Shown here piece after piece: positions 12,142 through 38,060 of a stretch of 64,000 bases of DNA. Made by a program: the position numbers and the translations under genes. Numbering within the stretch: the stretch's first letter is position 1; every line of letters starts with the position of its first letter. The notes below the pieces were generated by a model. That model was not told the DNA's origin. It saw only the letters and a list, made by a program, of their open reading frames with translations, and did no database searches. This stretch comes from a virus, in IMG/VR virus record IMGVR_UViG_3300007351_000004; one strand, 5' to 3'.

Positions 12142-12193
12142 AAAAGCAAAACCCGCCACATTTGAGCGTGTCCGAAGACCTCAGCTTGGCGGG
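12142..12193 (-). terminator. Intrinsic terminator
   Basis: CCCGCCA/TGGCGGG outer stem, inner GTC-TTCG-GAC hairpin, followed by TTTTGCTTTT. Confidence 0.7.
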
Positions 12194-30892: not shown

Positions 30893-31309
30893 ATGAATAA
30901 AATTATTGTCTACGGCGATGGTGGGTGTGAATCGAACGGCACAAAAGATGCAAAAGCATACGGATCTTTTATTGTGCAGACACATTTAGGTGGAGCGACA
31001 ATTTATCAACACGCCAGCGGTCGATTAGATTTTGGAGATCCTGCTACTAACAATGTTGCTGAAATTAAAACGTTTATTGCAGCAATAGAGTATGTGCTAT
31101 CTAGGGACGACAGTAGTGTGATCTCTTATCCTGTACTTTATTATACTGACAGTCAGCTAGTTGTCAATTGGTTGAACGGCAACTGGAAATGCAAACAGTC
31201 TCATTTGGTTCCTTTAGTGGAAGAGGCTCGTAGATTGATGCGTCGTTTTATGTCTTTATCGGTAGAGTGGGTATCACGAGAAACTATCGAGAAGATTTTG
31301 GGGCATTAG
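30893..31309 (+). CDS. rnhA: Ribonuclease HI
   Basis: YGDGGC...TNNVAEI...YTDSQLVV...WVSRE. Confidence 0.88.
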   Translation: MNKIIVYGDGGCESNGTKDAKAYGSFIVQTHLGGATIYQHASGRLDFGDPATNNVAEIKTFIAAIEYVLSRDDSSVISYPVLYYTDSQLVVNWLNGNWKCKQSHLVPLVEEARRLMRRFMSLSVEWVSRETIEKILGH

Positions 31310-33072: not shown

Positions 33073-33339
33073 ACATGCGACTCCTGATGCTCACGCTGCT
33101 AATAACATTGAGTGCCTGTTCGACGTGCGTCGTTTCAGATCCAGATACATATCTATATGATAGGCTGATCAGTGCGGGGCCGATATCAGCATAGAATAAT
33201 TCCCGTTCGGGTGGGTAGTTTGCCAGTCCTGCGCTATCAGTGGTGTAGCGGATGCCAGAAATATATGCCGCCCCATCTGTTTGCGAGTTACAAAAGTGTA
33301 TACTGTCGGAAATGCAAACAGAAAATTAACGAAAAGCAC

Positions 33340-33368
33340 TTGACAAAGCATAATTAGCATGATATAGT
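33340..33368 (+). promoter_or_regulatory. Sigma70 promoter of the RNA operon
   Basis: TTGACA-17-TATAGT; predicted +1 about 33375, the first G of the tmRNA-like RNA. Confidence 0.8.
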
Positions 33369-33374
33369 ATGTAC

Positions 33375-33462
33375 GGGTCTGAAGGTATTCGACAGGGAGA
33401 AAGTCAGCAGTTTAATCGCTGGCGAGTAAATCTGGACCGGGGCTCAATTCCCCGCAGATCCA
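33375..33462 (+). ncRNA. ssrA: Mini-tmRNA (tRNA-like domain only)
   Basis: GGGTCTG/CAGATCC acceptor with G3:U70 and A73; stemless D-loop ending TTCGACAGGG; 3' TGGAC-CGGGG-CTCAATT-CCCCG; only ~35 nt internal, no tag frame. Confidence 0.8.
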
Positions 33463-33465
33463 AAT

Positions 33466-33537
33466 GCCTGCTTAGTTTAACTGGCAAAACGCGCCATTTG
33501 TACTGGCGGAATCTCAGTTCAAGTCTGAGAGCGGGCT
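33466..33537 (+). tRNA. tRNA-Thr (anticodon TGT), CCA not encoded
   Basis: GCCTGCT/AGCGGGC acceptor, CGCCA-TT TGT AC-TGGCG, CTCAG-TTCAAGT-CTGAG. Confidence 0.9.
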
Positions 33538-33539
33538 TT

Positions 33540-33918
33540 GGTTGGTAGGAGGTTGGCTTAGAAGCAGCCATCCTTTAAAGAGTGCCGAGTGGAAGAGAGC
33601 GCCGATCTAACCAGTCGGGTAATCTCAAGTTCTGGTGCATGAGACGGGTGGTGCCCGGTAGCCGTGTCCCATCGGTATGTTGCGAAACCAGAATACCACA
33701 CGGAATGGTAGCACTCTAGGGCGTCCTAATAGAGAACCCGTACTATGTTTTTCCTTCTCTAGAACGATGAACTAGAGCAAGCCAGGGGTTGCTTGTATGT
33801 TTGCATAGTACGGGAGGAAATGCGAATTAACCTGTCGGGATCGGATATGGGATGGTCTTGGCAGCAATGCAAGCAACGTGGCCGTCTGAGGCTTTGGCGT
33901 AACAGCACACTACCAACC
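33540..33918 (+). ncRNA. 23S rRNA GTPase-associated-centre (H43/H44, L11 site) mimic split by a 313-nt structured insert
   Basis: 33544-33583 + 33897-33914 join to GGTAGGAGGTTGGCTTAGAAGCAGCCATCCTTTAAAGAGT|GCGTAACAGCACACTACC; closed by 9-bp GGTTGGTAG/CTACCAACC stem. Confidence 0.88.
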
Positions 33919-33920
33919 TT

Positions 33921-34063
33921 TTGCGACTGAACCTCTGCTAGTCGGAGTAGTAGGCCGCAACCGGGGGCGCTGGGCTCCCTTGTTATCCGCCCCAGCGATC
34001 TTGGTCTGTCGTTGGGTTTGATATGGGGCTTTGCCGTGTGCCCCAGACCAGAAACGCGGCAAA
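33921..34063 (+). ncRNA. Structured RNA segment with hairpins and a pseudoknot
   Basis: TTGCG/CGCAA, CGCTGGG/CCCAGCG, GGTCT/AGACC, GGGGC/GCCCC, loop TTTGCCG pairing with CGGCAAA. Confidence 0.5.
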
Positions 34064-34385
34064 ACTTTACATAAAGGATTGAACGTGGTTCCTCTACTCG
34101 CTTTCACTCTGCTGGTTTATATCGTTATCGGCTTTTTAATTATGCCCTGGTGGAATGCCGTGTTCGCTTTGTTTGCGGCTTTCTTGGGGGCGATGTGGGC
34201 TAAAGCACATGCCGAAGAAGATAATCGTTAAAAAATTTGGAGACGTGGATCTGGTGGTAACTAAAAATGTGGAAATGTTCTTAGTGTTGTCGCGTTGGTT
34301 GCGGTTTCGCATCTGGTTGGGGCTGAGATTAATTCATCTGGCGTCATTTGTGATGGGCATGGGATTTGAGGTAAAGGAAAAGTAG

Positions 34386-34976
34386 ATGGATTTTCTGCGA
34401 CAGGCGTATTTGGATTCTGTTTATTGGGCCAGCGATATTCTAGAGCGGGATTTTGTCGTGCTCGACACGGAAACAACTGACAAGATCGAAAATGGGGGCG
34501 AGATCATTCAGTTGGGCATTATCGATAAAGATGGTCATACTTTGATGGATCAGTTGATCAAGCCTAAAGGTAAAATCTCAGCGGGTGCAGCAAAAGTACA
34601 CGGCATTACCGAGAAAGATGTGGCTAAATCGCCCACGTTTGCCGATGTATATCCGCAACTTCAGGATATTCTAAGAGATAAGATCGTTGTTGCCTATAAT
34701 GCCGAATTTGATCGGAATATTCTGAATAACACCTGCGATTTGTATGATCTGGAGCATTTTCCGAATACGTGGCAGTGTGCCATGCTCGAATACGCCAAAT
34801 ACAATGGCGAGTGGCAGTCTAAGTTTAGTTCTTTTCGATGGAAAAAGTTGACAGATGCGGCAAGTCGGTTTAATATAGTGACAGACGGTGCTCACGATGC
34901 TTGCGCCGATGTGCGTATGACACTGCAGGTTATGAAGAAAATGTCAGAAGAATATATTCCTGCGATTGGAGAATAG
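34386..34976 (+). CDS. DEDDh 3'-5' exonuclease (DnaQ-like)
   Basis: VLDTETT, AYNAEFD, HDACAD. Confidence 0.9.
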   Translation: MDFLRQAYLDSVYWASDILERDFVVLDTETTDKIENGGEIIQLGIIDKDGHTLMDQLIKPKGKISAGAAKVHGITEKDVAKSPTFADVYPQLQDILRDKIVVAYNAEFDRNILNNTCDLYDLEHFPNTWQCAMLEYAKYNGEWQSKFSSFRWKKLTDAASRFNIVTDGAHDACADVRMTLQVMKKMSEEYIPAIGE

Positions 34977-36767: not shown

Positions 36768-37117
36768 AACGGCAGAGCTTGGGGCGGGTAAATTATCGTT
36801 CATCCCCCACCCGCCCCTTGCACATCACCGATCCACTCGCCTCGCGCTTCAATCCCCCGGTTGGCGACTCGCCGGGGGAGTTGTTTAAATATCTGATGGC
36901 GTGTCAGGTTAAAGCCTATGGCAAAACAATTTTATCGCTGCAGTCCAATCAATATATGCATATAAAACACTTGAAAAGCCTGCTTAATGAGTTTGATCCC
37001 TTGACAATTAAGAGAGCGATCCTGTATGCTAGTCTTAGATGCAGAAACCCGTTCGGGATACGGTGGATCAAAGTCTACGCTAAAAATATGAAGGATATGA
37101 TGGATGGGATTCGCTGA
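36764..37117 (+). CDS. Hypothetical basic protein
   Basis: ATGA overlap with previous gene. Confidence 0.6.
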   Translation: MKRQSLGRVNYRSSPTRPLHITDPLASRFNPPVGDSPGELFKYLMACQVKAYGKTILSLQSNQYMHIKHLKSLLNEFDPLTIKRAILYASLRCRNPFGIRWIKVYAKNMKDMMDGIR

Positions 37118-38060
37118 TCAGAGCATTTCTCCCAAAGTCTTGAAGCGGGAGATTAATATCCAGCAGGTTTTCGCGTATTTTGATATTGACATTGATGAAA
37201 ATAGTAAATGTCTGTGCCCTTTTCACGAAGACAAAAACCCGTCTATGTTAGTTAATTCCGAGTTTGCCTATTGTTTTGCCTGTGGTCGGGGGTGGGATGT
37301 CTTCGATTTTCTGAAAGACTACCTTCAGATAGAGTTTAACGATACGCTGTTCTGGCTCAACACCAACAAAGAATCGCTGCCCAATGTAAAAATTAAATCA
37401 AGAAGGCGGGGTGAATATCGCGGACCTGTCTCTCAGGAGTTGGTTCAGTATTGGCACTCATGCCTGACACATGAGCATCGGATGATTCTTCATGAAAAGA
37501 GACTCTTAACGGATGCTTTTATTGATCGCTGGTTATTGGGTTGGCGACCGGACTGGAACGCTTTCTCGATTCCTTTCTGGTCGGGTATTCCTCAGAAGAG
37601 CGAAATTGACATCGTTCAATTCAGGCTGACAGAGGAAAGTCCAGAGTTCATTACAAGATACACTCACGATTCCAAGTTCATTGGATTGCCGGGGCATAAC
37701 CGCCCCGCTCTGATAGGGATTCACTCTTTGAAAGATTGGGGTATCCTGGTTTTTGGGACATTTGACGCTCTCTTAGCGATACAGGACGGGTTTCCGTGTG
37801 TAAGCCCGAACGGTGCATCGGTGTTCTCGACTAAGAAAACCAAGCCGCGCATGGTTGAGATGCTGAAAGGTGTCAAGAGATTGTTTGTAGTTTACGATGC
37901 GACTGAGAGCGAAAGATCTTCCGCACAGAAAACAGTGAAAGATTTACCGTGTGATGTAATTGAGCGCGAGTTTGTTAAACACACGGATTACGGCGAATAC
38001 AGGCTGTATCATGATCCAGAAGAGTTTATGACCGAAATTTTAAAGTGGAGAATATCATGA
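37104..38060 (+). CDS. DNA primase (CHC2 zinc finger + Toprim-like)
   Basis: CLCPFHEDKNPS...YCFACG; GTFDAL; VVYDA. Confidence 0.85.
   Translation: MGFADQSISPKVLKREINIQQVFAYFDIDIDENSKCLCPFHEDKNPSMLVNSEFAYCFACGRGWDVFDFLKDYLQIEFNDTLFWLNTNKESLPNVKIKSRRRGEYRGPVSQELVQYWHSCLTHEHRMILHEKRLLTDAFIDRWLLGWRPDWNAFSIPFWSGIPQKSEIDIVQFRLTEESPEFITRYTHDSKFIGLPGHNRPALIGIHSLKDWGILVFGTFDALLAIQDGFPCVSPNGASVFSTKKTKPRMVEMLKGVKRLFVVYDATESERSSAQKTVKDLPCDVIEREFVKHTDYGEYRLYHDPEEFMTEILKWRIS

Follow-up and report, generated by a model that had tools for sequence, protein, structure and literature searches.

The mini-tmRNA gene and its surroundings

The window, a 64,000-nt stretch of an 81,155-bp virus record with direct terminal repeats, carries an 88-base gene for a miniature tmRNA on the plus strand at 33375-33462 (Table 1). 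In the gap in which it lies (33073-34385) every ORF is shorter than 80 aa, and none has a family match. Its neighbours encode an RNase H, a DnaQ-like 3'-5' exonuclease and a primase zinc-ribbon protein (30893-31309, 34386-34976 and 37104-38060), and therefore the putative RNA operon sits in a replication module. A near-consensus sigma-70-type promoter lies directly upstream. The 6-nt gap between its -10 element and G1 would place +1 on G33375, and we infer that transcription starts at this G, the first base of the RNA. The gene is followed by tRNA-Thr(UGU) and, after both, by terminator-like hairpins at 33963-34016. CCA is not encoded, as A73 is followed by AAU and then by the tRNA. Contigs from RNA libraries cover only 33557-33923 and not the mini-tmRNA; small structured RNAs are usually lost from RNA libraries. 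The phage encodes no SmpB, Pth or CCA-adding enzyme, so that host factors would be needed.

Table 1 Features of the mini-tmRNA gene and its immediate flanks (positions in the window)
Feature	Position	Strand	Remarks
Sigma-70-type promoter TTGACA-17-TATAGT	33340-33368	+	11 of 12 consensus matches; TG before -10 (extended -10)
Acceptor stem, 5' strand GGGUCUG	33375-33381	+	7 of 7 pairs with 33455-33461, G3:U70 included; G3 is 33377
Stemless D-loop analogue AAGGUAUUCGA	33382-33392	+	unpaired; read from sequence
Helix 2, 5' strand CAGG	33393-33396	+	minimum-energy fold
Purine-rich bulge GAGAAA	33397-33402	+	with G33403 forms the GAAAG motif, 33399-33403
Inner hairpin GUCAGC/GCUGGC, loop AGUUUAAUC	33403-33423	+	6-bp stem (33403-33408 / 33418-33423), 9-nt loop; fold and R1 alignment
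Unpaired GAGUAAA, 3' side	33424-33430	+	minimum-energy fold
Helix 2, 3' strand UCUG, then conserved GAC	33431-33437	+	fold and R1
T-arm CGGGG-CUCAAUU-CCCCG	33438-33454	+	C, not U, at position 54 (33443)
Acceptor stem, 3' strand CAGAUCC, and discriminator A73	33455-33462	+	A73 is 33462
tRNA-Thr(UGU)	33466-33537	+	ARAGORN; Rfam 56.7 bits; 3 nt past discriminator, co-oriented

An earlier note, made from the letters of the window, had read this locus as a tmRNA relative reduced to its tRNA-like domain (TLD), and the hallmarks that it named are all in place. The acceptor strands GGGUCUG and CAGAUCC pair and include the G3:U70 alanine determinant, the discriminator is A73, the stemless D-loop analogue ends in UUCGAC, and the 3' TGGAC leads into the T-arm. 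Counting C33393, the D-loop analogue has 12 nt, which is the modal length in the family alignments described below. The minimum-energy fold (-28.6 kcal/mol) has the same four-helix layout, and the folding energy by itself is unremarkable (z = -1.5). Helix 2 has 4 bp (CAGG/UCUG) compared with about 7-8 bp in the family, and the next two helix 2 pairs of our covariance model R1 are flagged as non-standard in the alignment of the window. The inner hairpin is an enlarged form of the 3-4 bp tetraloop hairpin of the family and is aligned by R1 as an 18-nt insertion; enlarged inner hairpins also occur in two 95-nt members.

Between the strands of helix 2 we counted 36 nt with one hairpin only, close to the ~35 nt of the earlier note. 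Its statement that pseudoknots and a tag ORF are missing also holds: neither pseudoknots PK1-PK4 nor a long helix 2 is present in the sequence or the fold of the element, no credible tag reading frame with resume and stop codons was found, and ARAGORN calls neither a tmRNA nor a tag peptide at 33375-33462. The short frames of the middle region, GCA GUU UAA and AGC...GAG UAA, are at chance level. Nor did ARAGORN or Rfam call a tRNA at the element (RF00005, 29 bits or more; D-stem, anticodon arm). An aberrant tRNA or ochre suppressor, with the loop read as U33-UUA-A37, was considered and rejected because of the excessive length of the arm, the tetraloops of other members at this place and the lack of a match to any tRNA model. 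An attP remnant of integration into ssrA was likewise rejected, as both TLD halves are present, the recombinase is ~10 kb off and DS6A integrates at tRNA-Lys and not at tmRNA.

A working miniature or split tmRNA would require either that the 36-nt middle be translated (Ala-Val-stop, or SSLIAGE-stop after AAGUC) or that a coding piece be supplied from downstream, for example by the short frame DGLGSNASNVAV-stop at 33851-33889. The AGUC before AGC is like the UAGUC before the E. coli resume codon, two-residue tags have been described for some bacteria, and the tag-like downstream frame, which like tmRNA resume codons is preceded by UA at -5/-4, belongs to the same putative RNA operon. However, such a frame is by our own estimate roughly a 1-in-20 chance event, and the middle of other family members has no frame. 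Judged by published ribosome structures, 36 nt above a 4-bp helix would hardly be long enough to thread the mRNA channel. ARAGORN and Rfam found no mRNA-like piece anywhere in the 81-kb genome, and the pairing between the middle and the downstream RNA (-21.3 kcal/mol) was no better than the shuffle mean (-22.8 kcal/mol). We consider a tagging function of this kind highly improbable.

Just after tRNA-Thr, at 33544-33602 and 33897-33918, lies a mimic of the GTPase-associated centre of 23S rRNA (the L11/thiostrepton site), which shares 36 identical nt with the Rfam LSU consensus (21-26 bits). Its domain of ~380 nt is closed by a 9-bp clamp, GGUUGGUAG/CUACCAACC, and the short frame mentioned above lies inside this insert. 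Similar stretches of ~40 nt, unannotated, are present in the large phages XacN1, CBB, Milchi, pf16, Aeromonas 4_4572 and Paenibacillus Pd_22F. A soil-metagenome contig joins 33540 to 33982 and skips 441 nt (33541-33981), a weak junction with 29 letters on its shorter side. Copies of a 368-nt piece (33556-33923), with no more than one difference, are present in DNA and RNA libraries from compost, bioreactor, biofilm and soil. Because of this skip and this recurrence, the rRNA-mimic cassette (33541-33981) seems to be an optional or mobile unit that can be separated from the mini-tmRNA and tRNA-Thr; it has no match among the Rfam intron and ribozyme models.

A family of mini-tmRNAs in phages

IMG/VR was searched with a gapped pattern consisting of UUCGAC, 20-50 nt, and a skeleton of GGAC plus T-arm. 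At least 119 stretches match, where by our own expectation only a handful would do so by chance. A complementary 7-bp acceptor stem is found in 113 of the 120 matches listed, to which the window's copy was added as a control. Among the matches listed there are 83 unique sequences, with G3:U70 in 82 and a discriminator A in all 83, and the lengths are 73-81 nt apart from two of 95 nt. As UUCGAC, GGAC and most T-loop letters were set by the search pattern, invariance at these positions is no evidence.

From 79 unique IMG/VR sequences, with the window's copy left out, we built the covariance model R1. It matches the window at exactly 33375-33462, over the full length, with 54.6 bits (E 3e-12), in agreement with the earlier reading of the element as a TLD. 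It also locates the element of mycobacteriophage DS6A (JN698994 28478-28557, 62.1 bits), the TLD-only ssrA relative that the earlier note had mentioned. The two true tRNAs of the window score at most 14.6 bits with R1. In cellular genomes the highest scores are ~37 bits for tRNAs and 45.4 bits for the 3' portions of ordinary tmRNA genes, and above ~54 bits only rare TLD-only-looking elements are found; these controls support the specificity of R1.

The check with ARAGORN and Infernal that the earlier note had proposed gave a divided answer. ARAGORN calls no tmRNA, whereas RF00023 of Rfam 15 aligns 33375-33463 end to end with model positions 1-374 (41.2 bits, E 5e-13), a score under the gathering cut-off of 47 bits, and the RNA is absent from a gathering-threshold scan. 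A narrower Rfam search gave just a truncated match of 8.6 bits. The DS6A element also scores below the RF00023 cut-off (43.2 bits), while canonical family members score above it (56.9-72.4 bits). ARAGORN thus misses the mini-tmRNA family, and Infernal with Rfam 15 catches most of it. The two scores of the window, 54.6 bits with R1 and 41.2 bits with Rfam, are at the low end of the family. At two TLD-only sites ARAGORN made spurious full-length tmRNA calls (L057:11236-11879 and L085:5905-6228) with the implausible tags AKQHGSTPA and AWDYNPMWVQCSA.

All four helices covary strongly across the family. In an 86-sequence alignment, which is model-guided and fitted to R1, 95.5% of the cells in paired positions are base-paired compared with 69.4% in shuffles, and 16 of 22 pairs have double-sided changes. 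The covariation score of 0.606 (against 0.124) was reached by none of 500 shuffles, and slid controls gave 0.08 at most. G3:U70 is present in 85 and A73 in all of the 86 sequences, whereas the neighbouring acceptor pairs 4-6 covary freely. This near-invariance beside varying pairs argues for selection on alanine charging in the family. Just 5' of the inner hairpin there is a NAAAR bulge, with A in 79, 63 and 60 of the 86 sequences at its three successive A columns, which the window carries as GAAAG. As NAAAR is specific to the mini-tmRNA layout, it points to kinship with the DS6A type and not to a separate deletion of a host tmRNA. A built-in stop codon after helix 2 was considered as a family feature and rejected, since the conserved letters are AAA and not U-purine-A.

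In cellular genomes the search pattern mostly hits the 3' ends of normal tmRNA genes, and TLD-only elements make up just 5 of the first 100 loci. The family is rare in cellular genomes and frequent in viral contigs (the 113 of 120 matches listed); it is a large family found mostly in phages, of which the window's copy is a divergent member. By BLAST, unannotated copies were found in the Streptomyces phages pSt2308, LuckySocke, GiJojo, Alone3 and BRock. In LuckySocke (OR725497.1 17977-18054; L257:2501-2578) the unannotated mini-tmRNA is flanked by tRNA-Val(tac) and tRNA-Ser(gct), an RNA ligase gene follows 1.6 kb further downstream, and in GiJojo a hypothetical protein is annotated over the copy of this type.

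The contexts of the family vary and include head genes, positions upstream of helicase/primase genes and the inside of tRNA arrays; about a fifth of the loci are within 300 nt of a tRNA gene. No recurring protein partner was found near family members. In one clade (L013, L023, L047, L054, L099, L109 and related IMG/VR loci) the mini-tmRNA lies on the same strand between the genes for a prohead protease (Peptidase_S78) and an HK97-type major capsid protein, a site that belongs to the most heavily translated late operon. A promoter of its own on G1 was rejected as a family trait, as our script flagged one in just 10 of 83 loci. A few further loci have a -10-like hexamer at promoter spacing, and others have a terminator-like hairpin upstream.

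The C at the start of the T-loop (CTCAATT), to which the earlier note had drawn attention, is one of the peculiarities of this copy. Among the 86 aligned sequences the window's copy alone has C54, and U54 is invariant in the 79 sequences of the model. An identical element, C54 included, is present in a soil metagenome contig (run X2) with different flanks, so that C54 is no assembly error. A C54-specific scan yielded five otherwise canonical metagenome members (75.6-78.9 bits) and no further member in IMG/VR. C54 is therefore real and tolerated. The five form a second, independent lineage with this change (L260, L273, L277, L284 and L275): four contigs have the same 78-nt mini-tmRNA, with the T-loop CUCGAUU, and the fifth has a 79-nt variant. 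With C54 and its 4-bp helix 2, the window's copy could be weaker or act differently.

These same departures are what a decaying relic of a phage tmRNA might show, and the sub-threshold Rfam score would fit as well; the position of the element directly before a tRNA would suit a mere tRNA-like processing signal that punctuates the RNA operon. We hold this very unlikely. None of the four helices is broken, the near-consensus promoter fits a start at G1, an independent sample has the same sequence between other flanks, and C54 also occurs in the high-scoring canonical members. Moreover, a plain processing signal has no need for a tmRNA-specific D-loop or an alanine identity.

The exact 16-mer from the D-loop of the window's copy had only chance coding matches in IMG/VR, and a pattern tuned to its helix 2 (TTCGACAGGG...CTGGAC) returned three known loci and five new ones, none of the new ones matching R1. 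Nothing matched in a blastn search of the 88 nt against cultured phages. The neighbouring DnaQ-like exonuclease led to distant phages only, none with a related locus, and the proteins of the phage have no close kinship to those of other TLD-bearing loci.

Comparison with known tmRNAs

The TLD-only tmRNA of DS6A is recorded at the tmRNA Website (tmID 11587) and attributed to Mao et al. 2009 in PMC4131195 and PMC11915505. In JN698994 the element is unannotated and lies between gp33 and gp34. Both RNAs are encoded by phages. They share the T-arm, an acceptor stem with G3:U70 and A73, a D-loop that lacks a stem, and a short helix 2 that ends in an A-rich bulge and a single hairpin. Neither has pseudoknots or a tag frame, both adjoin DNA-replication genes, and both match R1 (62.1 bits for DS6A, 54.6 bits for the window) while falling just under the RF00023 cut-off (43.2 and 41.2 bits). 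They differ in that the DS6A RNA is 80 nt long with a CCG-CACG-CGG tetraloop hairpin, a helix 2 of ~6-7 bp and U54, whereas the window's RNA is 88 nt long with a 6-bp stem and a 9-nt loop, a 4-bp helix 2 and C54. To the latter belong, in addition, a sigma-70 promoter placed for G1 and a tRNA gene that follows after 3 nt. The two phages are unrelated.

Compared with standard one-piece tmRNA (SsrA, RF00023), including the full-length tmRNAs of Bxz1-type mycobacteriophages, the window's RNA shares the TLD, the alanine identity and the expected partners AlaRS, SmpB and EF-Tu, and its TLD departs only by C54 in the T-loop. It is without the ~280 nt of pseudoknots 1-4 and the tag frame, and therefore no degradation tag can be templated. 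The CDS-less organellar tmRNAs of jakobid mitochondria (RF02544) and of two Mallomonadaceae plastids (~65 bp) are, as described in PMC11915505, likewise tmRNA relatives cut to the TLD. In contrast to the phage RNA they are non-viral and, in that account, products of reductive evolution with SmpB co-retained. Two-piece permuted tmRNAs (Alphaproteobacteria, Cyanobacteria and marine phages such as Melnitz; PMC9004378) also have a non-standard layout and also occur in phages. They keep a coding piece with a tag frame and assemble the TLD from two RNAs, whereas the TLD halves of the window are contiguous and no coding piece was found.

We found no description of a phage TLD-only family beyond DS6A in the literature. 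The kind itself is already published, in DS6A and in the CDS-less organellar forms, and the window's RNA is a new and rather divergent member of it.

Possible action at stalled ribosomes

The main system of ribosome rescue and protein quality in bacteria is trans-translation, which is also a drug target. We favour, on balance and with considerable reserve, the reading that the phage expresses from this locus a DS6A-type mini-tmRNA without a tag, which would compete with host tmRNA at stalled ribosomes without tagging. Host RNA polymerase would initiate at G1 from the adjacent promoter, and the cut of RNase P at the 5' end of tRNA-Thr would free the 3' end of the mini-tmRNA, which the host CCA-adding enzyme could then complete. 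Host AlaRS would load alanine by way of G3:U70 and A73. Together with host SmpB and EF-Tu, the RNA would compete with host tmRNA for entry into ribosomes that have stalled on broken mRNAs. With no template, the nascent chain would gain at most one alanine and no degradation tag, and infection would overall leave the trans-translation tagging of the host lowered or bypassed. Expression, 3' processing with CCA addition, charging, binding of SmpB and EF-Tu, and ribosome entry are all predicted here from the sequence and its relatives.

If this is true, phages manipulate ribosome rescue, and a widespread natural phage RNA reduced to what charging, SmpB binding and ribosome entry require would offer a ready-made tool for probing trans-translation and possibly for inhibiting it. 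The window's copy would also widen the known sequence range (C54, 4-bp helix 2, enlarged hairpin) and thereby help to define the required features, and its clean promoter would make expression constructs simple.

Strong inhibition of E. coli tmRNA by a DS6A-like molecule is described in PMC4131195 and PMC11915505, which cite Mao et al. 2009. As reported by Hudson et al. 2014, the inhibition occurs with or without chargeability and is perhaps due to titration of SmpB, and so charging may not be needed for the inhibitory effect. This result speaks for an uncharged RNA that merely titrates SmpB away from host tmRNA and does no work on the ribosome, as do the TLD parts kept in the element (D-loop, helix 2 junction, T-arm). 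An SmpB sponge, however, does not need G3:U70 and A73, which are kept almost without exception while the adjacent pairs vary. Because these charging signals are near-invariant, tag-free entry into stalled ribosomes seems favoured over a pure sponge, which we think improbable.

The same entry could serve productive tag-free rescue, with quicker ribosome recycling as the benefit: peptidyl-Ala-RNA would drop off or be freed by host Pth- or ArfB-type factors, which would give extra capacity when phage or defence nucleases shred mRNAs. The charging signals kept across the family are as expected here, as is the closeness of about a fifth of the loci to a tRNA gene, which a translation helper would lead one to expect. 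In PMC11915505, CDS-less tmRNAs are described as persisting with SmpB in jakobid mitochondria and some plastids, and a rescue role is assumed for them. Against rescue, the phage lacks a Pth homologue and encodes no means of release, and the RNA has no conserved stop codon, as the bulge is NAAAR with a preceding U in only ~37% of the sequences. The sole experiment cited in the sources above shows inhibition and not rescue. Productive rescue is in our judgement rather unlikely, though the next most probable reading after the competition with host tmRNA that we prefer.

The earlier note had also offered a decoy for a tmRNA-cleaving defence nuclease of the host, to which we add one that cleaves tRNA-Ala. 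Phages can make good the loss of tRNAs to defence nucleases with tRNA genes of their own, and the element is predicted to be co-transcribed with a tRNA and an rRNA-fragment mimic. We know of no defence nuclease aimed at the tmRNA TLD, none turned up in our searches, and the family has no recurring protein partner. A decoy appears extremely unlikely.

A broader reading, which we regard as speculative and rather unlikely, is that the strictly kept alanine identity reflects charged RNAs across phages, which carry out a distinct, virus-specific reaction on stalled ribosomes, a one-alanine, tag-free rescue or arrest. Here the mini-tmRNA would be one part of a single-promoter RNA operon, together with tRNA-Thr and the 23S mimic, that reprograms host translation, perhaps with the downstream tag-like frame as a new kind of split tmRNA.

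Elsewhere in the window, ~200 nt from tRNA-Arg(UCU), there is a sub-threshold match to the abiF RNA motif on the minus strand at 12151-12193 (29 bits against a cut-off of 37, E 0.44).
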